Source of the DNA: an uncultured bacterium
GTDB lineage: Bacteria > Abyssobacteria > SURF-5 > CBDUXP01
Assembly: GCA_965371225.1 (NCBI GenBank)
Contig: CBDUXP010000001.1
Span: forward strand, 146,111 to 210,110
Direction of reading: 5' to 3'
DNA length: 64,000 nucleotides
A model generated the notes under the pieces. The model searched no databases. It saw only the letters and a list, made by a program, of their open reading frames with translations, and was not told where the DNA came from. The first letter of the stretch is position 1. The number at the start of each line of letters is the position of its first letter. The translations under genes were made by a program, and so were the position numbers. Below are positions 1,586 to 54,977 of this stretch, piece after piece.

Positions 1586-1825
1586 CCCGGCCCGTCCCCG
1601 CGCTGCGGCCGGCGTGGCCAATTGTGGTCAGGCTACGGGACGTATATGCTAAGCACCCGAGCGTCGCGGACTTATGGAGACGGTCGCGCCGCTCGTGCCA
1701 CCCTCTGGGAGAGCGTGGGGCTTTGCGTTCGGGCCGGCGGTTACGACCGCCCCCGCGGGCGTTACAAGCTCGGAGTACAGAACGGGTTCCAATGGTTGTA
1801 CGGGAGGAACCGACCCCAGAGGCGT

Positions 1826-3291: not shown

Positions 3292-3321
3292 CGCGGCCGC
3301 GCACGGGTGGGGCAACCGGTA

Positions 3322-4839: not shown

Positions 4840-4857
4840 AATGGGCTAGGGGGGACG

Positions 4858-5958: not shown

Positions 5959-5966
5959 GGGGGCCC

Positions 5967-9842: not shown

Positions 9843-9848
9843 GCGCCG

Positions 9849-12241: not shown

Positions 12242-13407
12242 TCCCCGTCGGCCACTTCATCCGGACGTGGTTGCGGCCGACGGAGACCTTCGTGTGGCAG
12301 CCGCTCGCGCACCACGTGCGGTATCGCCCCGTCGTGCTGGCGCGAGACTGGCTGCCGAGTGCGCCCGCGTGCGCCGCGGAGGTGCACATCGCGAGTCGGG
12401 CGCTGCGTGGGCCGGCGCGGACCTGGGCCGACCTGCGCTATCGCGCGCACCGGGGCCTGGTCGGCGCGGAACGCCGCTACTACACGCGCACCCTGCGGGC
12501 GGCCGGGTGTGCGCTCGTGCACGCGCAATTCGCCACGGACGCGCGGTACGTGTTGCCGGCGGTGCGCGATGCGGGCTTGCCCTTCGTGGTCAGCGTGCAC
12601 GGGTATGACTATTCGCGCTTCCCGCAGAGTTACGGCGGCCTGGGACAGCGCTACCTCCGGCCGCTCTTCGAGAGTGGGGCGCGGTTCATCGCCGTGGCCG
12701 GCGCGGTGCGGGACGCGCTGGTGGATCTCGGCTGCCCGGCGGAACGCATTACGGTGTTGAGCTTCGGGATCGACACCGAGCAATTCAGCCCGGGACCATC
12801 CTCCCCGGCGTCCGACGGCTGCACGTTCCTCATGGTGTCCGGTTTCACCCAAAAGAAGGGCGTGCCGACGGCCATTCGCGCGTTCGACCGCGTGCGCCGC
12901 GAGGTGCCTGGCGCGCGGTTGGTCCTCGCGGGCACGGGGCCGGAGCGGGCGACCGCCGAGGCGTTGGTGCGCGACCGCGGCCTGCAGGAGCACGTGACGT
13001 TTCCGGGGTTTGTACCGCAAGCGGACCTGCCGGCGCTGTACCGCCGCTGCCAGGTGTTCGTGCAACCGAGCGAAACCACCGCGGCCGGCGACAAGGAAGG
13101 CATCCCCACCGTGATGATGGAAGCGTACGGCTGCGGCCTGCCGGTTATCGCCACGACGCACGCGGGGATACCCGAACTCGTTACCGACGGGGACAATGGG
13201 TACCTGGTGCCGGAACGTAATGTCGAGGCCCTCGCGGCGCGCATGCAGCAGCTCGCCGAGCGGGCGGACCTGCGGCACGCGTTTGGCGAAGCGGGGCGGC
13301 ATCGCATCCTGGCGGACTACAACGTGCGAACGCAGACCGCCCGCCTGGAAGCCCTCTACGACCTGTGCATGGGAGAGAGTGGGGCCGCGGTCGGGGCCGC
13401 GGGATGA
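12238..13407 (+). CDS. Glycosyltransferase family 4
   Basis: GT4 signature (…QPSETTAAGDKEGIPTVMMEAYGCGLPVIATTHAGIPELV…). GTGA overlap with upstream gene. Confidence 0.7.
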   Translation: MIPVGHFIRTWLRPTETFVWQPLAHHVRYRPVVLARDWLPSAPACAAEVHIASRALRGPARTWADLRYRAHRGLVGAERRYYTRTLRAAGCALVHAQFATDARYVLPAVRDAGLPFVVSVHGYDYSRFPQSYGGLGQRYLRPLFESGARFIAVAGAVRDALVDLGCPAERITVLSFGIDTEQFSPGPSSPASDGCTFLMVSGFTQKKGVPTAIRAFDRVRREVPGARLVLAGTGPERATAEALVRDRGLQEHVTFPGFVPQADLPALYRRCQVFVQPSETTAAGDKEGIPTVMMEAYGCGLPVIATTHAGIPELVTDGDNGYLVPERNVEALAARMQQLAERADLRHAFGEAGRHRILADYNVRTQTARLEALYDLCMGESGAAVGAAG

Positions 13408-13452
13408 ACGTGCGCGACACGGGCGTCCGCGCAGACCCGGCGGGGGAAGACG

Positions 13453-14829
13453 ATGCCTGAACCCGAAGCGCCGCTCGGTGCCGCCGGGCGCATCGGCGCA
13501 AACATCCGGCGCATGCTGACGAACAGCGCCGGCGTGCTCGCGTTGCACTTCGTCGCGACGATCCTCCTCTCCCGGTGGCTGCTACCGGAAGGCAAGGGGA
13601 TCTATGCGCTCGTCATCCTGATCCCCATGACGCTCGCGCGCGTGGCGAGTTTGGGCATGCCTCAGGCGCTCACCCACTACGTGGGCAAGGATGAATCGCG
13701 CGTCCCGGCGCTGCTGGCCGGTGCGACGCTCGTGGCAGCCGTCGCGGGCGGCGCGTGCATCGTGGCGTTTGCCGTCGTGGAGCGGTCCTACCCCTTGGCG
13801 ATTTTCGCGCACGCGCCGACGCCTGCGAAGATCGCGGCCGTCGGCATCGTCCCCCTCCTGCTGTGGGTGCAGTTCGCCTCCGGGCTGCTGTTGGGCCTCG
13901 ACCGCCAAGCGGCGTACCGCGGCGTGCGCTTGACGGAAGCGGTCGCGCTGCTGGTGGGCGTGGCGGCGCTCGTCGTGGGCCGCGGCTACCTGGTGTACGG
14001 CGCGCTGGGCGCCTGGCTGGCCTCGCAGGTCGCAGCCGCAGCCGTGTGTCTCGCCACGCTCGCGCGCTACCGCTTGTTGCGGTTCCGCTGGGACGGCGCC
14101 CTCCTGCTCCGGTGCCTACGGTACGGCGGCGCCGCGTGGATCGGGGGGATGGCCAGTTACCTGCTCCTCCGCGCGGACCTCTACCTGGTCAATGCATACC
14201 TGGGATCGGAGGCGGTGGGCCATTATTCCGTCGCGGTCGCGCTGTTCACGATTCTGTTCACCCTGCCCCTCTCCGGCGCGCTCGCTGTGTTGCCACAGGT
14301 CACGCGCACGGATGCGGCGGAGGCGCGGCGCATCACGGCCCTCACTTCGCGCGTGATCACGTTGGCTTGCGTCGTGGTCGCAAGTGTCAGCCTCCTGGTG
14401 GCACCGGCGGGGGTGGTCTTGCTCTTCGGAGAAGCATTCGCACCGGCCATCGCACCGCTGCTGCTGTTGCTACCCGTGTTCCTGCTATTCGGCGCGGGCG
14501 CCATCGTGCACGCCGCGATGCAGGGTATGGGCGACCTCCGCCCCTACGCGTACGCGAACCTGGCCGGGATGGTGCTGAACATTACGCTGAATCTGTTCTG
14601 GATTCCGCGATGGGGTCTGCCGGGCGCGGCCGCGGCGTCGACCATCGCGTACCTGCTCATGGCGGCCCTCCAGGTGGCCGCGTACGCGCGCAGGTCGGGA
14701 ACACCGGTGCGGGACTTACTGATCGTGAAGCGGGACGATTGGTCACTCGTGGCCGACTTCGTGCGGTTTCGCCGGCCCCCCCAGCTCGGGACCGCCGCGC
14801 CCGCTGCCACACCCACCGCCCACCCGTGA
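13453..14829 (+). CDS. Polysaccharide biosynthesis protein / Wzx-like flippase (MOP superfamily)
   Basis: 458 aa, about 12-14 TM helices, pattern typical of Polysacc_synt/Wzx. Confidence 0.65.
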   Translation: MPEPEAPLGAAGRIGANIRRMLTNSAGVLALHFVATILLSRWLLPEGKGIYALVILIPMTLARVASLGMPQALTHYVGKDESRVPALLAGATLVAAVAGGACIVAFAVVERSYPLAIFAHAPTPAKIAAVGIVPLLLWVQFASGLLLGLDRQAAYRGVRLTEAVALLVGVAALVVGRGYLVYGALGAWLASQVAAAAVCLATLARYRLLRFRWDGALLLRCLRYGGAAWIGGMASYLLLRADLYLVNAYLGSEAVGHYSVAVALFTILFTLPLSGALAVLPQVTRTDAAEARRITALTSRVITLACVVVASVSLLVAPAGVVLLFGEAFAPAIAPLLLLLPVFLLFGAGAIVHAAMQGMGDLRPYAYANLAGMVLNITLNLFWIPRWGLPGAAAASTIAYLLMAALQVAAYARRSGTPVRDLLIVKRDDWSLVADFVRFRRPPQLGTAAPAATPTAHP

Positions 14830-24234: not shown

Positions 24235-24684
24235 TCAGGCCCCCGCCTGCTCGGCCATCTTGCGGTAGTCGACCGTTAGCCAGTGTTTCGGCGTGAGGCT
24301 GACCAACACGCTCCCGGCGCGCTCGTCCTTCGTCATCTCCAGGTACATGGCCCCCATTTGCTCGCCCAGATAGCGAATCGCCATCTCGCTGGCGACGGGG
24401 CCCGTGTCGGCGTCCGAATCGATGCGCACCGGCCCTTCGACGGTCAAGTACTGGTACGGCGGTGACTCGGTTTGGACGCACAGACTCATGCGCCCCGCCT
24501 GCCGGAACAGCGTCGCCTTCTTCGACGTGCCGCCGGTCACCATCTGCACGTCGCCGCCGGAGGCGTAAGCGTACCAGACGGGGACCGTGAGCGGCCCGCG
24601 CCCCGGCTCCTCGACACTGATGATGGCGCAGTGGGTCTCCGCCAGAAAGGCTTCGCGTTCGGCCTTGCTCATCGCCATGGACAT
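24235..24684 (-). CDS. Pyridoxamine 5'-phosphate oxidase family protein (PPOX class, probable F420/FMN-binding)
   Basis: 149-aa split-barrel pattern (…TVPVWYAYASGGDVQMVTGGTSKKATLFRQAGRMSLCVQTE…). Confidence 0.55.
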   Translation of the reverse strand: MSMAMSKAEREAFLAETHCAIISVEEPGRGPLTVPVWYAYASGGDVQMVTGGTSKKATLFRQAGRMSLCVQTESPPYQYLTVEGPVRIDSDADTGPVASEMAIRYLGEQMGAMYLEMTKDERAGSVLVSLTPKHWLTVDYRKMAEQAGA

Positions 24685-24838
24685 CGCAATCTCCTCGACA
24701 CGGCTGGGCTGCCGCGGGGGTCAGCGTACCAAGCGGTCCCGAGCCGGACAACCGGGGGGCGCCGGCCGGGGGCCCGTGCGATATGCTACGCGCCTCGCCG
24801 CGCCCCGGCCCGGGCGCACACACGAAGGCAGTAGCCCC

Positions 24839-25756
24839 ATGCGCATCGCGATCGGCCACATTGAAGAAACATCCCTGGAGACCTACCTCGCCCGCATCCG
24901 GCAGGCGGAAGCCGACGGCTTCCCCACGGTCACCATCGCGAATATCTTCGACTTCGACGCGCTGATGCTCTGCGCGCTCGCGGGGCGCGAAACGACCACC
25001 GTGGAACTGATGACCGCGGTGGTGCCGACGTTCCCCCGGCATCCCCACGCCGTGGCCCAACAGGCGCTGACCGCGCAGGCCGCCACGAACGGCCGTCTCG
25101 CGCTTGGCGTGGGGATCAGCCATCAGGTCGTCATCGAAGCCATGCTCGGGCTGTCGTACGACAAGCCGGTGCGGCACCTGCGCGAGTACCTGGAAGTGCT
25201 CAACGGGCTGCTGGAGAACCACTCGTGCGAAGTGGACGGGGAGATGTACCGCGTGCACGCGCAGATTGGGTTGCCGGACGTGCCGGCGCCGCCCGTGCTC
25301 ATCGGCGCGCTGCGTCCGCAGATGATCAAGCTCGCCGGCCGCATGACCGACGGCACGATTACGTGGATGGCCGGACCCACCTACCTGGAGCGGGACATCG
25401 TGGGCCCCATGAACGCCGCGGCGGCTGAGGCGGGCCGGTCGACCCCCCGTACGGTGGCCGGGGTGCCCATCTGCGTCACGTCCGACCGCGACACGGCGCG
25501 GGAGGAGATCAACGGGCGCTTCGCCATCTACGGCAATCTGCCCGTCTACCGCGCCGTGCTCGACGCCGAGGGGGCAGACGGCCCCGCGGATATTGCAATC
25601 GTCGGTGACGAGGCGGAAGTGGAAGCCGGGCTGCGGCGGTTGAAGGATGCGGGCGTCACCGATTTCGGCGCCTCGATTGTCGGCACGGGGAGTGATCCCA
25701 AAGCCGCGCACCAGCGGACGTACGAGTTTCTCGCCAGCCTCGCCCCGGAGTTGTAG
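24839..25756 (+). CDS. LLM-class (luciferase-like monooxygenase) F420-dependent oxidoreductase
   Basis: TIM-barrel LLM pattern (MRIAIGHIEE…, …ALGVGISHQVVIEAMLGLSYDKPVRHLREYLEVL…). ATG 24839 preceded by GAAGGCAG. Only the 3' part of six-frame ORF 24587..25756 is used. Confidence 0.65.
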   Translation: MRIAIGHIEETSLETYLARIRQAEADGFPTVTIANIFDFDALMLCALAGRETTTVELMTAVVPTFPRHPHAVAQQALTAQAATNGRLALGVGISHQVVIEAMLGLSYDKPVRHLREYLEVLNGLLENHSCEVDGEMYRVHAQIGLPDVPAPPVLIGALRPQMIKLAGRMTDGTITWMAGPTYLERDIVGPMNAAAAEAGRSTPRTVAGVPICVTSDRDTAREEINGRFAIYGNLPVYRAVLDAEGADGPADIAIVGDEAEVEAGLRRLKDAGVTDFGASIVGTGSDPKAAHQRTYEFLASLAPEL

Positions 25757-38474: not shown

Positions 38475-38957
38475 TCAGGGCCAGGCGGGGCGCTTCCCAC
38501 CGTCGTACGGTTTCGCCAGGCCGGCACGCAGCAGCGCCTGGCCGAGGTCCTGGCCGTCCACCTCCACGTCGGCTACCAGGCGAAAGTATTTTCCGCGGCG
38601 CACGTGGTGCAGTTGGATTCGCTCGGCGCCCCACAGCCGGTCCGCGGTGTACGCCTTGGCCGTGACCGCCATCGCCCGCACCTTCGGCCGCTTGTCGCGC
38701 AATTCGGGTGTGTCGATGCCCGCCACGCGCACGCGGATGCCGTCGCCCACGATGGGCGGCCAGCCCTCCACGTCGGCGCGGAAACTATCCCCGTCGTACA
38801 CGGACCGGACCCGGTGGACTCGCGCGGACCCGTAGTCGCTCTGACGGCCCGCGTGGGCCCAGACGGGAGCGGCGAGCACCGCGGCTGCGACCAACAGGCC
38901 AGCCCGCCGGCGCGTCCGCTTCTCCGTCGGGCGGCTGCGTACGTCCCTAAAACCCAA
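38475..38957 (-). CDS. Thermonuclease (SNase-like) family protein, secreted
   Basis: SNase motif IRVRVAGIDTPE and an N-terminal signal peptide. Confidence 0.55.
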   Translation of the reverse strand: MGFRDVRSRPTEKRTRRRAGLLVAAAVLAAPVWAHAGRQSDYGSARVHRVRSVYDGDSFRADVEGWPPIVGDGIRVRVAGIDTPELRDKRPKVRAMAVTAKAYTADRLWGAERIQLHHVRRGKYFRLVADVEVDGQDLGQALLRAGLAKPYDGGKRPAWP

Positions 38958-39990
38958 ACTCTTGTTGGGCCGATGGGATGCGGAACGTGGCGGGGGGATC
39001 GGGCGGGGGCTGCTGATTGAAGCCCAGGCGCTCCGCGTGCAGGTGGAACAGCCGCTGCAGGCTGTCCCAATAGGTGCCGCGGCCGACCATGCGCGCGCCG
39101 AACCGCCATTCGTTTAGCTTGTTGCCGCCGCGCACTTCACGCACGCGACTGAGGATGCGGTCCGCGCGCAGGGGGAGCCGCTCCCGAATCCCCGCCTCGA
39201 ACACGTCCTTCACAGTCTGGGGCAGCCGCAGGCAGATAAAGCTGGCATCGGTCGCGCCGGCGTCGCGCGCGGCGGCGAGCAGTCCCGGGATATCCGCATC
39301 GTTCAGCCCCGGGATGATCGGCGCGATGAGCACTCCCACGGAAAGGCCCGCCTCTGCCAAAGTGCGGATCGCATCCAGACGCTTCTGGGGCGGCGCGGCC
39401 AGCGGCTCGATGACCCGGGCCAAGTCGCGATCCAGAAAAGTGAGGCTGACGACGACTTTCACGGCCGCGCGCGCGTGCAACGCCTGCAGGACGTCCAGGT
39501 CCCGCGTCACCAGGTGGGATTTGGTGACGATCGCGACGGGATTGCGGAAGGCGGCGCAGACTTCGAGACACCGTCGCGTCAGCCGCCATTCCGCCTCCAG
39601 GGGTTGATAGCAGTCGGTGTTACCGCTGAAGGCGATGCACTCCCCCCGCCAAGTCCGCTTGGTCCGGAACTCGCGCTCGAGCAATTCCGGCGCGTTGACC
39701 TTGACGATGATGCGCCGCTCGAAATCGCGGCCGGCGCTCATGTCCCAATACTCGTGGGTCGGCCGCGCGTAACAGTAGATACAGCCGTGCTGGCAGCCCC
39801 GGTACGGATTCACGCTCCAGTCGAAGCCCACGTCCGGGCTGTCGTTCCGCGTCAGAATGGTGTTGGGGCGTTCCTTGATGACCTCCACCGGCACGTCGTC
39901 CGGCGGCGCCTCCCAGTCGATGTGGTGTGCCTGAAAGGCCGTGTCGGGATTCGGGAGGGGCGCGTACTGCCGTCGCCGGTGGACGGGCAC
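38947..39990 (-). CDS. Radical SAM protein (SPL/PA0069-type 'DNA repair photolyase-like' subfamily)
   Basis: CxxxCxYC cluster motif (YRGCQHGCIYCYARP) and a C-terminal domain typical of this subfamily. Confidence 0.55.
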   Translation of the reverse strand: MPVHRRRQYAPLPNPDTAFQAHHIDWEAPPDDVPVEVIKERPNTILTRNDSPDVGFDWSVNPYRGCQHGCIYCYARPTHEYWDMSAGRDFERRIIVKVNAPELLEREFRTKRTWRGECIAFSGNTDCYQPLEAEWRLTRRCLEVCAAFRNPVAIVTKSHLVTRDLDVLQALHARAAVKVVVSLTFLDRDLARVIEPLAAPPQKRLDAIRTLAEAGLSVGVLIAPIIPGLNDADIPGLLAAARDAGATDASFICLRLPQTVKDVFEAGIRERLPLRADRILSRVREVRGGNKLNEWRFGARMVGRGTYWDSLQRLFHLHAERLGFNQQPPPDPPATFRIPSAQQEFGF

Positions 39991-42177: not shown

Positions 42178-42235
42178 GCGTCTCTTCGTCCCGCGTAGGG
42201 GCGCGATTGATCGCGCCCGACCCGATGGGCGGCCC

Positions 42236-42874
42236 CTACGGGGCGGGGTTCGGGCGGCCGGTGAGGGCTTCGAGGGCGGCTTCGGCCGCCTTGGCGGCTT
42301 CGATGATCTCGGCTTCGCCGCCGCCGAGGTAGAGGCGGCCGAACGCGCCAAAGGTCATCACTTCGAGCACATTGATGGGTGACGCCTTCTCCGCCTCGTT
42401 ACATGCGATGGCGGCGTACCCCGCGGGGTGCGTCTCCAGGATGTACAGCGCGTCGTTCTTCAGCAGCATGTCCCCGTGGCGCATCCGGTTGATGAGCGCG
42501 CTCTGCCGGTCGGTCATGCCGGTGATGATCTCGCGGGACACGACGCGCGGCGCGAGCCGGTCCTCGTCCGTCAGTCCGAAGTAGTCGAGGATCGCGGCGC
42601 CCGCAGCGCGAATCTGGCCCTGGTCCTCGTGGTGCATCTCCAGGAGGCCGAAGGCGCGCTCGACGATCTGCATGCCGGGCACGACCGCGGTCTGCTTGAG
42701 CGCCACGTCGGTCGCCGTGTTGATCTGCAGGCCGGGCGCGATCTCCACGTAGAGCGCCGCTTGCTGTTCGAGCGGCAGGAACCCCTGCGAGACGGTTTGA
42801 ATGAACGACGCGAGTTGCGGCTGCAGGATGTCGATGTACGTGAAGGTACGAAGGTCGATGCCGGCGGCGCTCAT
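42236..42874 (-). CDS. BMC-T shell protein (tandem, non-permuted BMC domains)
   Basis: Two internally homologous halves. The second (…ILETHPAGYAAIACNEAEKASPINVLEVMTFGAFGRLYLGGGEAEIIEAAKAA…) aligns by eye to the BMC-H at 46096..46404. ATG 42874 is 1 nt after the aldolase stop. RBS GGAGG. Confidence 0.55.
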   Translation of the reverse strand: MSAAGIDLRTFTYIDILQPQLASFIQTVSQGFLPLEQQAALYVEIAPGLQINTATDVALKQTAVVPGMQIVERAFGLLEMHHEDQGQIRAAGAAILDYFGLTDEDRLAPRVVSREIITGMTDRQSALINRMRHGDMLLKNDALYILETHPAGYAAIACNEAEKASPINVLEVMTFGAFGRLYLGGGEAEIIEAAKAAEAALEALTGRPNPAP

Positions 42875-42875
42875 G

Positions 42876-43745
42876 TCATGCCTCCGCGCGTGCCAGGGCG
42901 CGGCCCACTGCATCGACGATAACTTGCATCGTCTGCTCGTCCACGTTCGGGATCGTGGCGGCCACCGGCGCGGCCGCTGCCGGCGCACACACCGCCGGTC
43001 CTGGCGTCGGCGACGGGTCGTCTGCCGGGATCGCGAACGGTTGCAGCTTCCCGTTCGGGCACGCGTTGCAGTGCTCGCAGCCCAGGGCCACGGGGCGCCG
43101 CGGCAGGCCCAGGCCGTCGCCGATTTCCTGCAGTTGGCGAATCTGTTCCGGGGTCAGCGGTTGCACCTCGCCGAGCTGGCGGGCGGCGTGCGTAATCTGC
43201 GCCACGTGCTCCATCCGTTCGAGCTTCATGTACGCGTCCATCAGGTCCACACCCACGGTGAGGCTGCCGTGGCGTTCGAGGATCATCGCATCGAAATCGC
43301 CGATGTACTTTTTGATCGCCGCCGGTACTTCGTCGGTCGTGGGCGCGCTGTACGGCGCCGTGGGGATCACGCCGAACGTGAACACGATCTCGGGCAGCAG
43401 GCATTGCGCGAGGGTCTGGCCGGCGACGGAAAACGCGATGCAGTACGTGGGGTGCATGTGCACCACGGCGTTCACGTCCGGCCGCTCCTCGTAGACCGCC
43501 ACGTGCATGGGCATCTCCGTGGTGACGGGGTGCGCCCCCGCCATGCGCCGGCCGCGCATGTCGCAGATCACCAGATCGCTCGGCTTGAGGAATCCTTTGT
43601 GCAGGCCGCTCGGCGTGGAGAGAATCCGGTCGCGGCCGAGCCGCACGGACACGTTGCCGTCCGTGGCCGAGAGCCATCCGCGCTCGTAGGCCCAGCGGCA
43701 GACTTCGCAGATTTGCGCGCGCAGCGCGTGCAAGGGTTGGATCAT
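42876..43745 (-). CDS. Class II aldolase/adducin-family aldolase (FucA/RhaD-like) with C-terminal extension resembling a BMC encapsulation peptide
   Basis: Zn-ligand region VVHMHPTYCIAFSV. 289 aa versus about 215 for FucA. The tail has a Pro/Ala-rich linker followed by amphipathic helix EQTMQVIVDAVGRALARAEA. Confidence 0.65.
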   Translation of the reverse strand: MIQPLHALRAQICEVCRWAYERGWLSATDGNVSVRLGRDRILSTPSGLHKGFLKPSDLVICDMRGRRMAGAHPVTTEMPMHVAVYEERPDVNAVVHMHPTYCIAFSVAGQTLAQCLLPEIVFTFGVIPTAPYSAPTTDEVPAAIKKYIGDFDAMILERHGSLTVGVDLMDAYMKLERMEHVAQITHAARQLGEVQPLTPEQIRQLQEIGDGLGLPRRPVALGCEHCNACPNGKLQPFAIPADDPSPTPGPAVCAPAAAAPVAATIPNVDEQTMQVIVDAVGRALARAEA

Positions 43746-44023
43746 GCGGGCGCGCCCGTGCGGTCAATCGCGTCGACGATCCCGGCGATTACACAGTGGA
43801 CAGGCGATTGCGCGTCTCCGACCACCTGACGGGCGGCGTTCCCCTCGGGCACGATCAGCACGAGGTCCCCCTCGCCGGCCTGCACGGAATCCACCGCGAG
43901 CATGGTCTGGCCATCCGCCCGTCCGTCGGCGTCCAGCGGTTGCACCACCATTATCTTGTGGCCGCGGTAAATGGGATGCTTCACCGTGCTCTGCACGTTC
44001 CCGACGACGGTGGCGAGCTTCAC
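43742..44023 (-). CDS. BMC-P vertex protein (EutN/CcmL/PduN family)
   Basis: VKLATVVGNVQSTVKHP…GHKIMVVQPLD…VDSVQAGEGDLVLIV is a typical pentamer signature. GTG start overlaps the upstream stop (GTGA). Stop overlaps the aldolase ATG (ATGA). Confidence 0.65.
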   Translation of the reverse strand: MKLATVVGNVQSTVKHPIYRGHKIMVVQPLDADGRADGQTMLAVDSVQAGEGDLVLIVPEGNAARQVVGDAQSPVHCVIAGIVDAIDRTGAPA

Positions 44024-44307
44024 GGGGCGGCCTCCACCGGCATGGCGTAGAGCGAGTCGACGATGCCGACGATGCCCGAGTCCACCGGCACGAACCACTC
44101 GGGCAGCGCGTAACACGCTTCGCGCCCGTGGCAGAGCATCACGAGATCGCCCGGCCCGCTCTGCTCGGCCCCGTCGGGTACCACGATGGGTTCGCCCTTG
44201 GCGTGCCGCTCGTGATCCACCGGCTGCACGACCAGCAGCTTCACGCCGGCCAGCCCCGGCGTCTTACGCGAGGCGACGACGCGCCCGATGACTTGCGCGA
44301 GATGCAT
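44020..44307 (-). CDS. BMC-P vertex protein (EutN/CcmL/PduN family)
   Basis: MHLAQVIGRVVASRKTPGLAGVKLLVVQPVD…GPGDLVMLCHG. ATG 44307 lies just after the ALDH stop (44310). Confidence 0.65.
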   Translation of the reverse strand: MHLAQVIGRVVASRKTPGLAGVKLLVVQPVDHERHAKGEPIVVPDGAEQSGPGDLVMLCHGREACYALPEWFVPVDSGIVGIVDSLYAMPVEAAP

Positions 44308-44309
44308 GG

Positions 44310-45749
44310 TTACACGATCCGGAAGTGGTCTTTGAGCGTGCAGCGCCGCTCGCGGGTGAAGTGGACCGCGGTGGTCAGCCCCTCGCCCGTCGGACTCGCA
44401 ATGGTGAACGAGGTGTAACCCTCGCCGCGGTAACCGAGGCCGGACAGGCTCGACCCGTTTTTCACAAAGATGCTCGTATTGATGACCGCCGCCATCCGGC
44501 TGAGGCTGTCGATATTGCGCGAGTGCATCACCGCCGTGTGGCCGAACCCGTGCTCTGCCTCCACCGCCAGGTCGATGGCGGTATCCACGTCGGGCACGCG
44601 CACGAGCGGGATCAGCGGCATCATGAGTTCCATCTGCACCAGCGGATGCTCGAACGGCACTTCGGCCAGGATCATGCGCAGGTCGTGCCCCGCGTCGACC
44701 CCGATCTCCCGCAACAGGCAGCACGCGTCCCGGCCCACCCATGCGCGATTGATGGCACCGTGCGGGTTATCCGGCGACGGCGGCTCGGTCACCACCACTT
44801 GCGTGATGGCATCGATTTGCGCCTCGGTGAGTTCCACCGCGCTAATCGCTTTGAGTTCCGCCTTGAGGTCGTCAGCAATACTGTCGACCGCGAGGATCTC
44901 CTTTTCCGCCACGCAGATGATGTTGTTGTCCGTGGTGCAGCCTTCGATCAGAAACTGCGCGGCCGAGGGCAGGTCGGCCGTCTCGTCCACCACCGCGGGC
45001 GGGTTGCCCGGGCCGGCGGCGATGACCTTTTTGTCGCTGTTCATCGCCTCGCGCACCACGCCCGGCCCACCCGTCACCACGAGCAACCGAACGGCCGGGT
45101 GGCGCATGAGGGCTTGCGCGGTGGGGATCGTCGGTTCGGCCACCGAGGTCAACACGTTGGCCGGCCCGCCGGCGCGCTGAATAGCGCGGTTGAGAACATC
45201 GATGGTGAACAGGGACACGGCCGTCGCCGACGGGTGCGCGTTGAACACGACCGCGTTTCCGCCGGCGACCATCCCGATGGCGTTGCAGAGGATCGTCTCC
45301 GTGGGATTCGTGCAGGGCGTGATGGACCCGATGACGCCGTACGGGGCCCGCTCGGTCAGCATGAGGCCGTGGTCGCCGGTGCACGCCGCCGTCCGCAGGA
45401 TCTCCGGCCCCGGGGTCTTGTCGATGACGAGCCGGTTCTTGATCACCTTGTCCTCGGCGCGCCCGAGCCCCGATTCGTCCACCGCCATTTGGGCGATGGC
45501 GGGCACGATCTCATGCGCCGCGCGGCGCATCTCCGCGATGATGCGGGTCCGCCGCTCGAGCGACTGAGCGCGGAGGGCGGCCGCCGCGTCGTGCGCCGCC
45601 TGACAGGCGTCGTCCATCCGGGTAAACACCCCCTGATACCCGGCGGACGATTGCGCGGCGGCGACCGCCCCATTCCCCTCCGCGGTCAGGCGCGCGACCA
45701 CCTGCTCCACGACGGCAGTGATCTGGTCGCGGCTCAGCGTCGCGCGCAC
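44310..45749 (-). CDS. CoA-acylating aldehyde dehydrogenase (EutE/PduP-like) with N-terminal encapsulation-peptide-like helix
   Basis: ALDH superfamily with the EutE/PduP pattern (…IGSITPCTNPTETILCNAIGMVAGGNAVVF…, …CTTDNNIICVAEKE…). N-terminal DQITAVVEQVVARL helix plus a Gly/Ala/Ser linker before the catalytic domain. GTG start. RBS GAGG. Confidence 0.75.
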   Translation of the reverse strand: MRATLSRDQITAVVEQVVARLTAEGNGAVAAAQSSAGYQGVFTRMDDACQAAHDAAAALRAQSLERRTRIIAEMRRAAHEIVPAIAQMAVDESGLGRAEDKVIKNRLVIDKTPGPEILRTAACTGDHGLMLTERAPYGVIGSITPCTNPTETILCNAIGMVAGGNAVVFNAHPSATAVSLFTIDVLNRAIQRAGGPANVLTSVAEPTIPTAQALMRHPAVRLLVVTGGPGVVREAMNSDKKVIAAGPGNPPAVVDETADLPSAAQFLIEGCTTDNNIICVAEKEILAVDSIADDLKAELKAISAVELTEAQIDAITQVVVTEPPSPDNPHGAINRAWVGRDACCLLREIGVDAGHDLRMILAEVPFEHPLVQMELMMPLIPLVRVPDVDTAIDLAVEAEHGFGHTAVMHSRNIDSLSRMAAVINTSIFVKNGSSLSGLGYRGEGYTSFTIASPTGEGLTTAVHFTRERRCTLKDHFRIV

Positions 45750-45759
45750 CTCTCAGCCC

Positions 45760-46074
45760 TCACACTCCGGCGGGTTCCGCCGCCGGATATTTCTCGAACA
45801 CCACCTCGCCGTCCAGGTCCCACGTGTCCACGATGGCCATGATGACCGCATCCACGGGCCGCGCATCGGTGAGGTCCGTCTGCCGCGCGGCCGAGCCGGT
45901 GGCGTACAACACCACTTCCCCAACGCCGGCACCGACGGCATCGACCGCCACGTGATATCCGTCTGCGGCCTGCGCGCGCACATCCAGGTTGCGCACGAGC
46001 AGTAATTTCAAGTCGAGGAGCCGCTCATCCTTGCGCGTGGCAACGACGGTGCCCTCGACGCGCCCAAACAGCAC
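45760..46074 (-). CDS. BMC-P vertex protein (EutN/CcmL/PduN family)
   Basis: MLFGRVEGTVVATRKDERLLDLKLLLV…VGAGVGEVVLYATGSAARQ. Confidence 0.65.
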   Translation of the reverse strand: MLFGRVEGTVVATRKDERLLDLKLLLVRNLDVRAQAADGYHVAVDAVGAGVGEVVLYATGSAARQTDLTDARPVDAVIMAIVDTWDLDGEVVFEKYPAAEPAGV

Positions 46075-46095
46075 GGTCGAGTCCTCGCGCCCGGC

Positions 46096-46404
46096 CTACG
46101 CGGCCGGCAGCGCGGCGGTCGCCGTGGGCCCGCGCCCGAGCGGCAGCCGCTCGTCGACATTCTCGTGGGGCCGCGGGATCACGTGGACGCTCACCAGCTC
46201 GCCGACCTTTTCGGCCGCGCGGCTGCCCGCCTCGGTGGCCGCTTTCACGGCAGCCACGTCGCCCCGGACCACCGCGGTGACGTATCCCCCGCCGATTTTC
46301 TCGTAGCCCACGAGTTCGACCCGCGCGGCTTTCGCCATGGCGTCCGAGGCTTCGACCATACCGACGAAGCCGCGGGTTTCGATCATGCCCAATGCATCTG
46401 ACAT
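46096..46404 (-). CDS. BMC-H hexameric shell protein (PduA/EutM/CcmK-like)
   Basis: [56 protein letters not shown] is the canonical BMC domain. RBS GGAGGAG. Confidence 0.85.
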
Positions 46405-46583
46405 CTCATTACTCCTCCGCTGCAGGCGCCGCGGTTGTTAAGACCGGAATATGCAATGTGCGCCCGGTCGAGAAAAATCCCTGCGAGATCCTAGGGGCGA
46501 ATCGTGTATTCACCCATCGGGTGCGGGCGATCACAAGGATCGCCCCTACGGGAGAGAGGTGGGACATTGCACAGCCGTTCTCA

Positions 46584-47231
46584 CTAATTTGCGGCCGCTT
46601 CCCGGGCCTCTTCACCAAACGGAATACCTTCCACGCGTTCAAGCGCTGCGACGGCCGCTTCCGCCGCGGAGTCGATCTCCGCTTCGCCGCCGGACATGTG
46701 CAGCCGGCCGTACGCGCCATACGGGCGGACTTCCACCAGCTTCACGTCCGCCGCCTTCTCCGCCTCGTTCGCGGCGTACACCGCGTAGCCCGCGGGCTCC
46801 GTCTCCAGAATGAACAGGGATTCTCCCGGCAGGATCATCGACCCGTTGCGGTTCCGGTTGATGAGCTGGCATTGGTAGGGCTCGACGGCGCGGATGATCG
46901 TGTTCGAGACGATGTTCGGCTTCAGCCGGTCGGTCTCTTGCAGGCCGATGTGCCCGAGCACGGCGCGGCCCGCGCTGCGCACCTCGCCCTTGTCCATGTC
47001 GTGCACCTCGAGCAACCCGAACGCGCGTTCCACGATCTGAATGGCCGGCTGACAGGTGGTGGCCTTCAGCGCCACGTCGAGGACCCGATTGATCGCCAAG
47101 CCCGGGGCAATCTCCACGAACAGGGACCCCACGCCGGGGACCGGCAGGAAGCCCCGGGCCGTCGCCCCCATGAACGACGCCAACTGCGGCTGCAGGCTGT
47201 CCAGGAAGATGTAGGTGCGGAGCGTAGTCAT
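46584..47231 (-). CDS. BMC-T shell protein (tandem BMC domains), paralog of 42236..42874
   Basis: Same two-repeat architecture (…[23 protein letters not shown]…, …[55 protein letters not shown]…). Start taken at MTTLRTY (ATG 47231). Confidence 0.5.
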
Positions 47232-47241
47232 GCCGGGGGCC

Positions 47242-48120
47242 TCAATACTGTTTGCGCACAATCGCGTCTTCGATCTTCTTCTGGTTGCGGTACATGCGCT
47301 GGGGATTGCGCATGCCCAGCAGGACGAAGAGCGCGTCGATGATGGCGGCCTGGGCCAGCCGGCTCGCCAGCGCCTCGGCCCGGTACCGGGTTTCGCTGGA
47401 CGCCGTGACCAGCACCACGTCGCTCACCTTCGTGATGGGCGAGAGTGAGTTGTTGGTGATGGCGATCACCCGCGCCCCGGCCTGCGCCGCGACGCGAATC
47501 GTGTCGATGGGATCCGTGGTGCTGCCACTGTGCGACACGGCCAGGACCACGTCGCCCTTCCCCAGCAGGGCGGCCTCCATCATCTGCAGGTGGCTGTCCG
47601 TCTGGACGCGCACCGGCAGCCCGAGGCGCAGCAGCTTGTTATACGTGTCCGTGACCACGGGGCCCGAGGTGCCCACGCCAATGACGACGATGGTCCGGGC
47701 ACGGAACAGCAAATCCACCGCCCGCTCCACGGCGGCGGGATCTAGCACGTCCAGCGTGTCTTGAAGCGTCTGGATGTTCAGGCCGAACACCTTGCGCACC
47801 ACCGTGGACGTGTCGTCCGACGCTTTCACGTCTTCCAGCAGGCTCTGCAGGGGCGTCAGCCGGTCCCGCGCCAGCGCGATCTTGAACTCCTGGAAGCCCG
47901 AATAGCCCAGGGTGCGGCAGAAGCGCATGACGGTGGCCTCGCTAACGCTGCTGCCGGCCGCCACCTCGTTGATCGCCTGCCCCAGCAGCGCCTCCGGCTC
48001 GGCGGCCACATAGGCGCCGACTTTCCGCTCGGCCTTGGACAGACTGGCCTGGGCGCCGCGCACGCGGGCCAGGCAACCGCTGCCCAGGGGACCGGCGGTA
48101 CGCGCCTGGGTCTTAGCCAT
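47242..48120 (-). CDS. RpiR/MurR-family transcriptional regulator (HTH_6 + SIS domain)
   Basis: N-terminal HTH (…[54 protein letters not shown]…) and SIS domain (…[14 protein letters not shown]…[12 protein letters not shown]…). ATG 48120 with GAGGA 8 nt upstream. Confidence 0.7.
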
Positions 48121-48171
48121 GGGACCGTTCCTCCACAGCCCCACCCTAGCAAGCGTGGGCGGCCAGGTCAA

Positions 48172-48225
48172 GAGTTTTACGTTATTTTACTAAAAAAAAT
48201 GTAGTAAAACGTTATTTTTCCACCA
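48172..48225. promoter_or_regulatory. AT-rich divergent intergenic region with 8-bp inverted repeat (TTTTACTA-N9-TAGTAAAA) and 10-bp direct repeat (ACGTTATTTT); candidate operator/promoter between RpiR regulator and ABM gene
   Basis: Read directly. Arms at 48185-48192 and 48202-48209. Direct repeats at 48179-48188 and 48209-48218. Strongly AT-rich island in a GC-rich context. Confidence 0.4.
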
Positions 48226-51172: not shown

Positions 51173-51873
51173 GATGCGTGCGCGCGCAGGGCATCGAGCA
51201 ACCGCTGCCAGAATGCGCCGGCATGGATGCGCGCCGCGCCGTCCGTGGGCATGGGACGTTCCGGATGCCACATGATGCCAGCGATGGGGGCGCTGCGGTG
51301 CACGCAGGCTTCCACGCTCCCGTCCGGCGCGAACGCGGTGGGCTCCAGGTCCACGGCAATGTCTTCCGGCCGGATCCAGCGGTCATGATAGGAATTGACG
51401 GACACGGTTGGCTCGGGCCACACCCCCGCCAGGGCCGCGCCGGTGAACTGCACGTCGTGGCACGTGCCCCGGTGCGCCTGCACGTCCGGCACCGGCGCAT
51501 CCGCGCCGCCGAACGCCTGGTTCAGGAACTGGAAGCCGCGACACACGCCGACCACGGGGATGCCCGCCTCCCGCGCCGCGCGCAGGTAGGCTAGTTCCGC
51601 ATAGTCGCGCCGCGCCCAGGGATCCTCGGACTCCTGCACGGGAGTGTCCGGACCGATGGGCGCGCGGAGGTCATCGCCACCGGTCAGCACGAGCAGATCG
51701 AGGTTGCTGCGGTGCAGGCGGTCGGCGGCCGCAAGCGGCGCGTTGGGCAGGAGCACGGCCTCGGCCCCGCACGCGTCGAGCGTCCGGGACCAGTCGTGGC
51801 TGATCGCATCCCGCGGGTCGCTGTAGTCCGCGCTGGCGACATCCATCACCCGCATGGTCAGCCCAATCCGCAT
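51169..51873 (-). CDS. Peptidase C26 / class-I glutamine-amidotransferase-like hydrolase (γ-glutamyl hydrolase type)
   Basis: Catalytic Cys context GVCRGFQFLNQAFGG and His context MWHPERP. ATG 51873 overlaps the upstream stop (TGATG). Only the 3' 705 nt of six-frame ORF 51169..52527 is used. Confidence 0.6.
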   Translation of the reverse strand: MRIGLTMRVMDVASADYSDPRDAISHDWSRTLDACGAEAVLLPNAPLAAADRLHRSNLDLLVLTGGDDLRAPIGPDTPVQESEDPWARRDYAELAYLRAAREAGIPVVGVCRGFQFLNQAFGGADAPVPDVQAHRGTCHDVQFTGAALAGVWPEPTVSVNSYHDRWIRPEDIAVDLEPTAFAPDGSVEACVHRSAPIAGIMWHPERPMPTDGAARIHAGAFWQRLLDALRAHAS

Positions 51874-54800
51874 CACACGCCCGCCACGGTGCGATTCCCG
51901 CAATCCAGTTCGATGGCGGACGCGCGGCGCAGGTCGGCATAGAGCGCCGCCCCGCACCCGATGGCCGCGGGGAGCCCGAACTCCGCCGACCGGATCGCCA
52001 TGTGGGAATTGGCGCCCCCGTACTGCGTAATCAGGCCGGCGATGTCCCGGGTGAAAATCCAGTCGAAGCCCGGGTCCGCAAAGGAGAGCAACACGATCTT
52101 TCCGGACAGGTCGCCCGCTGCCGCGTCCCCTTCGAGCACTGCGGGCGGCGCCAACACGCGGCGCGTGGTGATGAAATTGGGCCGACTGTGAATCTGTTCG
52201 ACGATTTCCAGATCCCGCGCGGCGGTAATCAGGCCGGGCATGATCAGCATCTGCTCCAGCCGGTACTGCTCCCGCGCCGCGGCGATCTCGGCGCGCGCCG
52301 CGTCCACCCGGGCGGGCGACGCCGCTTCCCGGCTCAGCCGGAGCAGGGTGCCGTAGGACAGGAACGACAGATCGTCCCGCGTCAGCCCCACCGTCTCGCC
52401 CCAGCGGGCGATGCACTCGAGGGCGGCGCTGAGGTTCACGGTGAAGCGAAACTTCGCCGCTTCGCGCGCGGCCACCGTCGCGGCGACGAACCGGAGCACC
52501 GCATCCGCGGAGGCGCACAGCCCGCACGCTTCCAGGGCCTGCGTCATCGCACCGCGTTCACCTTCGGAGAATTCGCCCAGCAGGTCCCCCGCGTCCGCGG
52601 GCGCCTGTGCCGGCGCCTGGGCGGTGGGCGACGCCGCGGCAGGGAAATACCGGTCGGGCGCCGCATCGTAGCGGGGGGAGAGGATGTCGTAGGTGCCGGG
52701 GCGGAGGTGCCCGTACATTTCGAGAAACGAGTCAAGGCTCGTGCGACTTTCACGCACGCCGGTCAGCGCAGCCATGAGGTCGGACGCCACCGTTGGAATG
52801 TGTTGGTGCACGCTATCCAGTTGCCGCGGTGTGAGGAGCCCTTCCGCCGCCAGCCCCCGCAACAGGGCGGACCCGACGAACGCCATGCGCGCCAGCATGC
52901 TGAACGGCAGGGTGCCGCACGTGCGCGCGTCTTCCAGCATCCGCTGCATCGCACTCAGCGGCACGGTCTCGCCCAGTGCGTGGTGCTGCGCCCGGCGCGC
53001 CGTCAACCGGTCGACCTGCTCCAGCAGGCCGGCGACGGTCGGCCCTTCACCCTGCAACATCCGATTGGTCAGCGGCAGGAGCGCGGCGCGGAGCGCGGCA
53101 ATGTCGCCGTCGACCACCCCGTGTTCGCGGAGCCGACCGGCGTGGCGGTCGAAGTCCGGGGTGGTGCACGTGACGGCGATTTCGAACTCCAATTTGTCGT
53201 GGGCCGCCGGTTCGGCCTCGAGCGCGTCCAGGTACGCCGTCACGATGCGGTCCCGCACGTCGGGCGCGAGGGCCGCCGGGGTCAAGCTGTTCAGGCTGTT
53301 GCGCACGTCGATGTACGGGTGTCCGCCCACGAGCAACATCAGGGGCTCGCCTTCGGGGTGGAAGTAGCCCAGGGCCGCGCGCGCGTCCCGCCACGTGTGA
53401 TTCGTGATCAGGTCGGCGTACAGCGTGTGCGCCAACGGGCGGGGATGCGCGCCGAGCATCTCGGCCGGATTCCAGTCCGGCATGTCGCCCAGAATCGTGC
53501 GGTCGCCCCCCAGCGGCGGGCGGGGGCCGAGCTGCGCCTCCACGAACGCGCGATTGGCCTCCACCAGCGGCGTGACGTCGTTCAGGTAGTAGCGCGACAC
53601 CACTTCGGTGATCGCCAGCGGGCGCGCCTGGAAGAGCACGACCTCGCCCGACGCGCGCACGGCGTACTCCACGTCGACCGTTTCGCTTCCGGTGCGCGCT
53701 TCGACCTCCTGGACCGCGGCGACCACACGCGCCAGCTCCGGTGCGCCCGGGGATTCGCGCGTGTGCTTCCACAGGGCGACGGTTTCCAGGTCGGTGGCGC
53801 TGCCGCTGGTGACGCCGTCCGTGCGGCTGGACCGCTCGTGGGTGAGCACGTAGTAGGGGCCGCCCGTGCGCAGGTCGCAGGACACCGCCACCCCGCTCAG
53901 CACTGCATCGTCCAGCCAGGGCTGCACCAGCACGCGATGATCCGCGCGGGTGTCGCCGTAGCTGTCCAGCACCGCGTCCACTGCCGCGGCCACGGCGGGC
54001 TGATCCACCACCGCCACACCGAGCACGGAGTGGTACACCCCGGCGTTCGAACTATCGAGCGCGTCCTCGTCGGGCGCCGAGCTGCGCACGACGATCTGCC
54101 CCTGGGGAAACGCCTCGCGGATGCGCGCGTACGCCGCCGCCGGCTCCTCCGCCCACTCCCGGGCATCCACTGTCACCTGATCGAGGACGCGCGCCGTCTG
54201 CAAGACCGGCTGGAGGCGCTCGAGAGTCTCCGCCTTGGTGCCGAACACGAACCGGGTCAGGTCCTGCGGCGAGTCCAGGTCCGCCCATGCGTTGCCGATG
54301 TCGACCGCGTGCACTCGGTCGCCGCGGTCGATCAACGCTTGCAACAGGTCGATGATGGTCAGGTCCGCCGTGCGGTCCGCGCCGGCCACCCCGAGGGCCG
54401 CACCGCCGCCCAGGTCGGCTAGTTGGCGCACGGCCGCGGTCTGGGGCGGGGCGAGGTACAGGAGACCGGTGAACTCTCCGTGCGCTTCGGCGCCGGGCAG
54501 GTCGCGGGCGATGCGCCGCACGGTGCCGTCGGGGGCCACCTCCACCTTCTCGGCCTTGCGTTGGAGCGCGTCGCTGCGATCGAGGTACCGCACCTGCCAC
54601 TGCCGGTCGATCGCGACGACGAGGCCGTGCGCCGCCGCATCCAGCACCACGCCGACGGCTTCCGGCCGGTAGACCGTATCGCAGTAAGTCACGAGCACGG
54701 GCCCGTCCACGTCCGCGGTTCCCACGAGGAGCGAGCCCACCATGCCCGACGTGGCCCAGTGGGGATTAAACCGGAATTGCACGGCGGGATACCGCGCGCT

Positions 54801-54977
54801 CAACACATCGATGTCCTTCCCGCCGACGACCACCACGTCCTCGATGCCGTTGCGCCGTAGCGCGTCGAGAAGCCACGGCAGCGTCGCGTCCATGCGGCCG
54901 TGGAGGGAGGACGCCGCGCGCAGGTAAGGGGGCTGCACGGATTCCAAACCGCGCGCGGCCAACAGGACGGCTCGCAC
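51873..54977 (-). CDS. PEP-synthase/PPDK-like ATP-dependent kinase (PPDK_N ATP-grasp-like domain + PEP-utilising phosphohistidine domain) with N-terminal degenerate nucleotidyltransferase-like domain
   Basis: Middle region VVRSSAPDEDALDSSNAGVYHSV (PPDK_N hallmark). C-terminus …GGANSHMAIRSAEFGLPAAIGCG (phospho-His mobile domain). N-terminal ~250 aa resemble an NTP-transferase fold (MRAVLLAARGLES…) but lack GxGTRL. Confidence 0.6.
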   Translation of the reverse strand: MRAVLLAARGLESVQPPYLRAASSLHGRMDATLPWLLDALRRNGIEDVVVVGGKDIDVLSARYPAVQFRFNPHWATSGMVGSLLVGTADVDGPVLVTYCDTVYRPEAVGVVLDAAAHGLVVAIDRQWQVRYLDRSDALQRKAEKVEVAPDGTVRRIARDLPGAEAHGEFTGLLYLAPPQTAAVRQLADLGGGAALGVAGADRTADLTIIDLLQALIDRGDRVHAVDIGNAWADLDSPQDLTRFVFGTKAETLERLQPVLQTARVLDQVTVDAREWAEEPAAAYARIREAFPQGQIVVRSSAPDEDALDSSNAGVYHSVLGVAVVDQPAVAAAVDAVLDSYGDTRADHRVLVQPWLDDAVLSGVAVSCDLRTGGPYYVLTHERSSRTDGVTSGSATDLETVALWKHTRESPGAPELARVVAAVQEVEARTGSETVDVEYAVRASGEVVLFQARPLAITEVVSRYYLNDVTPLVEANRAFVEAQLGPRPPLGGDRTILGDMPDWNPAEMLGAHPRPLAHTLYADLITNHTWRDARAALGYFHPEGEPLMLLVGGHPYIDVRNSLNSLTPAALAPDVRDRIVTAYLDALEAEPAAHDKLEFEIAVTCTTPDFDRHAGRLREHGVVDGDIAALRAALLPLTNRMLQGEGPTVAGLLEQVDRLTARRAQHHALGETVPLSAMQRMLEDARTCGTLPFSMLARMAFVGSALLRGLAAEGLLTPRQLDSVHQHIPTVASDLMAALTGVRESRTSLDSFLEMYGHLRPGTYDILSPRYDAAPDRYFPAAASPTAQAPAQAPADAGDLLGEFSEGERGAMTQALEACGLCASADAVLRFVAATVAAREAAKFRFTVNLSAALECIARWGETVGLTRDDLSFLSYGTLLRLSREAASPARVDAARAEIAAAREQYRLEQMLIMPGLITAARDLEIVEQIHSRPNFITTRRVLAPPAVLEGDAAAGDLSGKIVLLSFADPGFDWIFTRDIAGLITQYGGANSHMAIRSAEFGLPAAIGCGAALYADLRRASAIELDCGNRTVAGV

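Follow-up and report, generated by a model that had tools for sequence, protein, structure and literature searches.

A stretch of 64,000 nucleotides from an uncultured bacterium of the Abyssobacteria lineage (contig CBDUXP010000001.1, positions 146,111 to 210,110; the whole stretch is referred to here as the window) carries on its minus strand a nine-gene operon which, as known from its genes, probably specifies a complete, minimal metabolosome of the HO type, a class of bacterial microcompartment (BMC), lying close to the type II HO loci and to SPU5. From position 48123 down to 42236 the genes encode an RpiR-family regulator, a BMC-T protein, a BMC-H protein, a BMC-P protein, an aldehyde dehydrogenase (AldDh), two further BMC-P proteins, a class II aldolase-family enzyme and a second BMC-T protein. 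We assign the locus to HO because its shell set is orthologous to that of HO and its genes follow the order of HO loci. Compared with HO it appears to be a variant, in which the BMC-Ts protein (and with it the MNdh module seen in Nitrospinota) has been lost, both double-stacking BMC-T proteins (BMC-Tdp) are encoded within the operon, and the RpiR gene stands at the head.

The sequence is rich in GC (69% over the window), as had been stated of the host, and true genes were picked by their third-position GC content and then by reading the translations. This value lies between 0.82 and 0.89 across the nine genes, which marks them as real coding frames, and refined ATG starts were placed at 48123 for the regulator, at 47231 for the first BMC-T and at 42874 for the last. 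The nine genes form one operon, since only one wide gap occurs, a spacer of 180 nt that separates the first BMC-T from BMC-H, and all other junctions are 10–21 nt long or overlapping: the rpiR stop codon lies 10 nt ahead of the first shell gene, gaps of 21 nt and 10 nt follow, and from AldDh through to the last BMC-T the start and stop codons overlap or abut. Translational coupling is present within the module. The initial annotation had described the same nine genes, with a regulator, three pentamer genes, two BMC-T genes and an enzymatic core of an aldolase and an acylating AldDh; their coordinates, order and strand are confirmed by third-position GC and Pfam, the BMC-T pair is recognised through solved structures, and both core enzymes match Pfam or NCBIfam models and bear encapsulation peptides (EPs).

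The reference point for classification is the 2021 BMC catalogue (Sutter et al., PMC8217296), in which the HO type comprises 41 loci, mostly from Deltaproteobacteria/Myxococcota, and has a function described as ‘enigmatic’. Its shell is defined by one BMC-H, a BMC-P triplet, two BMC-Tdp proteins (one of the CsoS1D clade and one of the CcmP clade) and one BMC-Ts, and its AldDh always carries an N-terminal EP and is not accompanied by a phosphotransacylase (PTAC) (PMC8217296). A pfam00596 aldolase is optional; where present it has a C-terminal extension and possible EP, and its gene adjoins two BMC-P genes, placed in a satellite locus in type I and in the main locus in type II (PMC8217296). Of these elements the window holds the single BMC-H, the BMC-P triplet, the BMC-Tdp pair, the EP-tagged AldDh and the aldolase within the main locus; the BMC-Ts is the element that it lacks. 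Comparison with the catalogue, which the initial annotation had suggested, does place the locus in a known type, but that type is HO and not the PVM-like group to which the locus had been likened.

The shell proteins carry this assignment. BMC-H (PF00936, 3.8e-30), the sole single-domain PF00936 gene in the window, has the HO hexamer Hoch_5815 as its best natural match in the Protein Data Bank (PDB; E=6e-46). The three BMC-P proteins match PF03319 at 2.8e-27, 2.6e-22 and 4.9e-25 and are divergent, with 35–39% identity among themselves (35–37% between the second and the other two); the best PDB match of the first is the HO pentamer of structure 5V74 (2.2e-27), and the second and third have positional orthologues in other phyla. 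Both BMC-T proteins score low on PF00936 (7.4e-08 and 0.0079), so that the earlier shell calls, which pass the BMC and EutN models for BMC-H and the pentamers, become clear for BMC-T on comparison with structures. The first matches HO-T2 (Hoch_5816) with E=1.6e-88 and 69% identity over 203 aa, at 299 bits compared with 239 for HO-T3, and has a CsoS1D_N domain in precomputed annotation; the last matches HO-T3 (5V76) with E=3.1e-86 and 67% identity, at 292 bits compared with 227 for HO-T2. Each scores clearly lower against CcmP and CsoS1D than against its own HO counterpart. The two are unambiguously predicted to be tandem-domain proteins of the double-stacking type, and by best-hit orthology they would correspond to HO-T2 (CsoS1D clade) and HO-T3 (CcmP clade). 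Elsewhere in the window, to which our genome-level searches extend, we detected no additional shell gene, AldDh or aldolase and no PduS.

How this arrangement relates to others can be seen from a scan seeded with the AldDh at one genome per species. It yielded 80 loci spread over many phyla, all with AldDh identity of 60% or less, and all nine window proteins were mapped onto them. A widespread core emerges with the order Tdp-H-P-AldDh-X-P-P-(aldolase), in which X is a PduT-like BMC-Ts in almost all of the 80 loci, and the order T-H-P-AldDh recurs in about 70 loci from many phyla. Three layouts are relevant here. The type I HO layout (L088; H. ochraceum) is Tdp-H-P-AldDh-Ts without RpiR; that of Nitrospinota (L001, L005, L007, L020 and L087) is RpiR-Tdp-H-P-AldDh-PduS-Ts-P-P-aldolase; and that of the window, RpiR-Tdp-H-P-AldDh-P-P-aldolase-Tdp, recurs in three other contigs (L081, L083 and L084), whose module proteins are 71–92% identical to those of the window in L081 and L083 and 51–85% identical in L084. 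Like the window, L081 and L084 lack a BMC-Ts within ±10 kb of the module; for these loci as for the window, a distant satellite copy may exist. The BMC-Ts of the Nitrospinota loci carries a CPGK Fe-S pore motif. In sister loci (L007:11461-13362, L087:6293-8387 and L014:11452-13331) PduS/MNdh is always followed by a CPGK-bearing BMC-Ts, and the pore cysteine is lacking where the BMC-Ts has no adjoining PduS (L016, L067, L078 and L004). PduS together with an Fe-S BMC-Ts constitutes the MNdh/BMC-TSE module for NAD+ recycling (PMC11626177), and the occurrence of CPGK only beside PduS agrees with this 2024 rule.

The relatives also delimit the module. In L081 the flanks are those of the window, with ABM, short-chain dehydrogenase/reductase (SDR), histidine phosphatase, radical SAM and SNase genes, whereas in L084 the module lies on a 4.58 Mb contig among entirely different neighbours. 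Because the L084 flanks are unrelated, the nine genes constitute an autonomous module, one that changes its genomic surroundings as a single block, with the flanking SDR and phosphatase genes outside it.

Of the two enzymes, the AldDh matches PF00171 (6.6e-34), passes the curated PduP/EutE-type model NF011927 with 640 bits (cut-off 403) and has the BMC enzymes 5JFL and 4C3S as its best PDB matches (E~1e-127), with the catalytic cysteine motif NNxxCVAEKE aligned with that of 5JFL. It is accordingly predicted to be a PduP-type CoA-acylating aldehyde dehydrogenase. Residues ~5-21 (LSRDQITAVVEQVVARL) form an amphipathic helix that we take as its encapsulation peptide; this N-terminal helix is kept across phyla, and the linker behind it is variable in all lineages. 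Since AldDh and aldolase each bear at one terminus an amphipathic helix joined by a disordered linker, both are predicted to be cargo.

The aldolase-family enzyme (PF00596, 2.4e-50) has a FucA-like fold, with a TM score of 0.89 normalised to FucA at 30–31% identity and with E. coli FucA as its top structural neighbour. Residues E77, H96, H98, H159, N31 and T44, invariant in our alignment A2, align with E73, H92, H94, H155, N29 and T43 of FucA, which make up the Zn ligands and the phosphate site. Three elements make up its tail. A CxxCxxC motif (CEHCNAC-P, residues 223–229, 43059-43079) separates the catalytic domain from the EP linker, which is disordered and rich in Pro and Ala, and an amphipathic helix for encapsulation follows at the C terminus (42882-42938). 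The AlphaFold2 model has confidence values (pLDDT) above 90 in the core, below 50 for residues 234–256 and about 90 for the helix at 270–288, and confidence is low in the region of the cysteine motif. This tail architecture is found across phyla in 118 of the 120 nearest homologues, and the motif, of which we met no mention in the text of the BMC catalogue, is a possible site for a metal or an Fe-S cluster. On these grounds the enzyme is assigned to a class II subfamily dedicated to BMCs. When metagenomes were scanned with the aldolase, the only matches were two unrelated paralogues, both encoded alone (43% identity). A stand-alone orthologue among the 118, with 63% identity, the cysteine motif and an EP-like tail, occurs in Minicystis rosea (CP016211; L085:8949-10897), where it is divergent from a TRAP-type transporter (TAtT, DctQ and DctM), a possible hint that the pathway starts from an imported organic or sugar acid.

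At the head of the operon, the regulator combines an N-terminal HTH_6 domain (1.6e-19) with a C-terminal SIS domain (4.6e-20), and its gene holds the same leading position in L081, L083, L084 and the Nitrospinota loci. Because it carries a SIS domain, its effector is likely to be a phosphosugar. Upstream, between rpiR and the divergent ABM gene, an AT-rich island (48124-48215), conspicuous against a background of 69% GC, contains, in order, a repeated AAAATAACGT(N3)AC motif, TTGACC-N17-TAGGGT and, ahead of the ATG, GGAGGA. In front of their rpiR genes L081 and L083 retain the -35 and -10 elements together with a TAyTACATTT box, and L084 does so in part; we regard the island as a candidate RpiR operator, and a generic sigma-70 scan of the locus made no call at this promoter. 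Two further non-coding elements deserve mention. The spacer between the first BMC-T and BMC-H (46405-46583) folds stably, with a minimum free energy of -59 kcal/mol (z=-3.4), and at 180 nt is unique to the window, compared with 25–34 nt in relatives and 124 nt in L084. It has no Rfam match and is neither a repeat nor conserved, and might act as an mRNA processing or stability element that tunes the ratio of shell proteins. The last gene of the operon and the convergent SDR gene are 58 nt apart, and this gap holds a hairpin (42178-42235; -37 kcal/mol, z=-1.7, a weak value) without a U-tract, at which a terminator scan made no call.

We tentatively envisage the operation of such an organelle as follows. 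RpiR would repress the operon from the conserved operator/promoter until its SIS domain is occupied by a phosphosugar. This compound, most likely a ketose 1-phosphate, would enter through the gated pores (~14 Å) of the BMC-Tdp trimers, a route by which sugar phosphates have been suggested to enter carboxysomes and SPU BMCs (PMC11585597). The aldolase would split the sugar phosphate into dihydroxyacetone phosphate and a short aldehyde, which AldDh would capture as acyl-CoA with the formation of NADH. Acyl-CoA and CoA, and NADH and NAD+, would then have either to be exchanged through the BMC-Tdp pores or to be recycled by unlinked EP-tagged enzymes, since this clade lacks PTAC, an alcohol dehydrogenase (AlcDh) and the PduS/MNdh plus Fe-S BMC-Ts pair. 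SPU loci without PTAC typically carry BMC-Tdp, and exit of acyl-CoA through the BMC-Tdp pore has been proposed for them (PMC11585597). In its fullest form, this reading sees in the operon a minimal, self-contained HO organelle of six shell genes, two cargo genes and one regulator, without an enzyme for recycling NAD+ or CoA and with cofactors passing through two gated BMC-Tdp pores, in which the cysteine-motif aldolase subfamily would act on a phosphosugar other than fuculose-, rhamnulose- or deoxyribose-phosphate and RpiR would sense that same compound. This fullest form is speculative, and we consider it rather doubtful.

Several observations weigh against the HO assignment and the mechanism outlined above. 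The canonical HO shell has a PduT-like BMC-Ts, which comes after AldDh in all the other lineages that were compared, and tblastn with three BMC-Ts queries found none in the 64 kb. No PTAC/PduL, AckA, alcohol dehydrogenase (Fe-ADH), DERA, RpiB, TPI or PduS was found in the window either; the initial annotation had reported the lack of PduL, AckA and a lactaldehyde reductase for the locus itself, and this holds for the whole window. With no cofactor-recycling enzyme found there, the pathway as drawn is incomplete. RpiR reaches no NCBIfam equivalog cut-off (MurR/RpiR 226 against 378, AlsR 193 against 400, HexR 180 against 296), and its effector is not assignable from family. The aldolase likewise falls below every curated functional NCBIfam cut-off, with 130 against 250 for OtnC, 121 against 251 for ribulose-5-phosphate (Ru5P) epimerase, 78–111 against 250–400 for FucA and 60 against 170 for RhaD, and the equivalent of the catalytic Tyr113 of FucA is not conserved. 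For these two reasons aldol cleavage by this enzyme is assumed, and the class II aldolase superfamily also comprises epimerases, decarboxylases, dehydratases and oxygenases.

It is conceivable, then, that the enzyme performs decarboxylation, epimerisation, dehydration or metal-dependent oxygenation, perhaps with an additional metal or Fe-S cluster at CxxCxxC, and that there is no classic relay from aldolase to AldDh. The top sub-threshold matches, to 3-oxo-tetronate-4-phosphate decarboxylase and then Ru5P 4-epimerase, point in this direction, as do the missing tyrosine, the decarboxylases and non-haem-iron oxygenases among the structural neighbours, the three cysteines that are invariant in all but two of the 120 homologues, and the transporter of organic-acid type beside the M. 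rosea orthologue. However, that the enzyme is obligately paired with an acylating AldDh within a shell implies that the intermediate is an aldehyde, the Zn site of one Glu and three His and the phosphate-binding residues match those of aldolase members, and the cysteine motif is placed beyond the catalytic domain, where model confidence is low, and may be structural only. We therefore hold such a chemistry to be improbable.

The initial annotation had filed the locus with the PVM and PVM-like metabolosomes, in which fuculose- or rhamnulose-1-phosphate aldolase releases lactaldehyde for conversion to lactoyl-CoA by AldDh. What speaks for this is the joint occurrence of a class II aldolase, the signature enzyme of PVM, with an acylating AldDh and a BMC-P triplet, together with the position of E. 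coli FucA as top structural neighbour and the automatic naming of homologues as ‘L-fuculose-phosphate aldolase’ by JGI pipelines. A BMC-P triplet is, however, also present in HO, SPU, ACI and FRAG loci. By the catalogue definitions (PMC8217296), PVM shells pair two BMC-H with three BMC-P, lack BMC-T and are confined to Planctomycetes and Verrucomicrobia, whereas the window has one BMC-H and two BMC-Tdp in a shell orthologous to HO; and PVM loci include PTAC, acetate kinase, a lactate/malate-DH-like (lactaldehyde) reductase and a DeoR regulator, none of which is in the window. PVM-like loci, mostly from Firmicutes, are distinguished by a GRM5-type AldDh, PTAC and BMC-P, and again differ from the window in its HO-type shell and lack of PTAC. 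The substrate fares no better: the aldolase lies under all FucA and RhaD cut-offs and is as near to OtnC/YgbL and to DrdA (5-deoxyribulose-1-phosphate aldolase) as to FucA, and neither isomerase, kinase nor transporter genes for fucose or rhamnose lie nearby. PVM or PVM-like is thus not the best filing, the proposed lactaldehyde route from fucose or rhamnose is unsupported, and we give this explanation little credence.

RpiR-family regulators classically govern pentose-phosphate genes, and the regulator could accordingly sense a pentose phosphate in an SPU-like metabolosome for nucleic-acid sugars. In such a system an EP-tagged DERA (pfam01791) encoded elsewhere would make acetaldehyde, and the class II aldolase would be an accessory enzyme for triose-phosphate products. 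The catalogue places the HO AldDh closest to those of SPU5 and SPU7, reports an EP-bearing pfam01791 enzyme elsewhere in some HO genomes and proposes nucleic-acid catabolism for HO (PMC8217296); SPU5 loci, moreover, share the N-terminal EP on AldDh and the C-terminal EP on the aldolase, and only half of them contain DERA. Nevertheless, no DERA, RPI or TPI occurs in the window or in the ±10 kb flanks of L081 and L084, and every SPU subtype encodes a BMC-Ts (PMC11585597), of which the locus has none. In the module that moves as a unit the aldolase is the sole cargo enzyme besides AldDh, which argues that it is the signature enzyme. An SPU-like function is on balance unlikely.

Should the HO assignment hold, the operon gains interest from the standing of the H. 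ochraceum shell, a reference system for BMC structure and engineering whose natural function has been ‘enigmatic’ since its description. It would offer a compact experimental handle, with the HO components in one transcription unit, only two enzymes tagged by an EP, and a regulator of the ligand-sensing kind. Knowing the RpiR effector and what the aldolase acts on should name the pathway. Without BMC-Ts, PTAC, AlcDh and MNdh, it provides a test of whether the passage of cofactors through BMC-Tdp pores is by itself enough to sustain a metabolosome. If the minimal-organelle reading is true, finding the RpiR effector would disclose what the HO BMC, the main model of a BMC shell, natively does. 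The description of the locus as an under-described variant can be kept in part: the function of HO is unknown, and the linkage to RpiR and the consolidated layout without BMC-Ts do not appear in the searchable part of the catalogue, but the HO type itself is catalogued.

The surroundings of the operon were considered as a source of the missing pathway parts, for instance an NAD+-recycling reductase. The convergent SDR, His_Phos, glyoxalase and radical-SAM neighbours were rejected as such parts, being syntenic in L081 but not in L084, and the SDR was also rejected as a cargo reductase since it has no EP-like extension. A gene of YfcH type in the window has its nearest named homologues at <=55% identity in mixed phyla. 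At 38475-39990 a PA0069-family radical SAM gene (403 bits, cut-off 360) is followed by a staphylococcal-nuclease-like gene; this pair is syntenic in L081 and unrelated to the BMC module. As to the host, two F420-dependent enzymes at 24235-25756, one of the PPOX class (TIGR03618-like, below cut-off) and one LLM-class oxidoreductase (TIGR03564, 309 bits, cut-off 234), support the earlier statement that it contains F420. A large exopolysaccharide cluster at 146-14829, with a polyprenyl glycosylphosphotransferase, an export protein, a chain-length determinant, GT4 glycosyltransferases like those of PEP-CTERM/XrtA-system families and an asparagine-synthase-like gene, suggests a diderm host, and the relative L081 encodes OmpA. 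At 51873-54977 a protein of 1034 aa has short PPDK_N and PEP-utilizer mobile-domain matches and is mostly without a Pfam match.

Table 1 Features of the operon and its borders in the window.
Feature	Position	Strand	Basis
Candidate promoter/operator region upstream of rpiR (predicted function)	48124..48215	-	read from sequence
RpiR/MurR-family regulator, HTH_6 + SIS, operon gene 1	47242..48123	-	Pfam
BMC-Tdp, putative HO-T2 orthologue (Hoch_5816; CsoS1D-like clade)	46584..47231	-	PDB phmmer
Structured T-H intergenic spacer, 180 nt	46405..46583	-	folding, MFE z-score
BMC-H hexamer, Hoch_5815 orthologue	46096..46404	-	PF00936, PDB match
BMC-P pentamer 1, Hoch_5814 orthologue	45760..46074	-	PF03319, PDB match
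Predicted CoA-acylating AldDh (PduP/EutE type), N-terminal encapsulation peptide	44310..45749	-	NF011927, PDB matches
BMC-P pentamer 2	44020..44310	-	PF03319 2.6e-22; positional orthologues in other phyla
BMC-P pentamer 3	43742..44026	-	PF03319 4.9e-25
Class II aldolase-family enzyme, FucA-like fold, three-part tail	42876..43745	-	PF00596
BMC-Tdp, putative HO-T3 orthologue (CcmP-like clade), last operon gene	42236..42874	-	PDB phmmer to 5V76
GC-rich hairpin, possible terminator	42178..42235	-	folding, weak

Comparison with known systems carries a lesson for annotation, namely that an aldolase, an AldDh and a BMC-P triplet are not together diagnostic of PVM. The ACI loci of Acidobacteria, also of unknown function, share with the window a pfam00596 aldolase with a C-terminal EP and the BMC-P triplet, and their aldolase is described as ‘most similar to that of HO/MIC3’ (PMC8217296). 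They differ in having a hydroxyacid dehydrogenase and unique unknown proteins, a satellite AldDh with a C-terminal EP, and no BMC-Tdp pair. The actinobacterial Verrucosispora-type MIC, ARO and BUF2 BMCs, to which a 2014 paper had provided a lead, were rejected as the orthology of the shell is to HO. SPU5 (8 loci) stands closer, with an AldDh that is the closest to that of HO and has an N-terminal EP, a CsoS1D-like BMC-Tdp, a BMC-P triplet, no PTAC and, optionally, a pfam00596 aldolase with a C-terminal EP. SPU is, however, defined by DERA (pfam01791), which was not found in the window, and the first BMC-Tdp is 69% identical to HO-T2 compared with 61% to that of a Bdellovibrionales locus (L012) presumed to be SPU5-like.

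Related layouts are those of Nitrospinota metagenome-assembled genomes, where RpiR again stands first, the order Tdp-H-P-AldDh is followed at a distance by P-P-aldolase, and the aldolase has the tail with cysteine motif and EP; their BMC-Tdp proteins are 77–82% and their BMC-H proteins 82–94% identical to those of the window. Unlike the window, they hold PduS/MNdh and the Fe-S (CPGK) BMC-Ts between AldDh and the second BMC-P, and they show no second BMC-Tdp within ±10 kb, where the window has one in its operon. Relative to this form, the clade of the window would have lost the MNdh/BMC-Ts module and gained a second BMC-Tdp in the operon. From HO itself (shell structure PDB 5V74) the window differs in that no PduT-like BMC-Ts (HO-T1) follows AldDh, in that its CcmP-clade BMC-Tdp is part of the operon and not of a satellite locus, and in that an RpiR gene leads; we found no paper, and no entry in the searchable text and tables of the catalogue, that ties RpiR/SIS regulators to BMC loci. 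The similarities to HO are as follows: H, P, T2 and T3 are orthologous, with 67–69% identity for the BMC-Tdp pair, the order Tdp-H-P-AldDh is that of Hoch_5816→5813, AldDh bears its EP at the N terminus, the pfam00596 aldolase stands beside two BMC-P genes in a locus without PTAC or AlcDh, and, as in type II HO, the BMC-P triplet and aldolase are together in the main operon.

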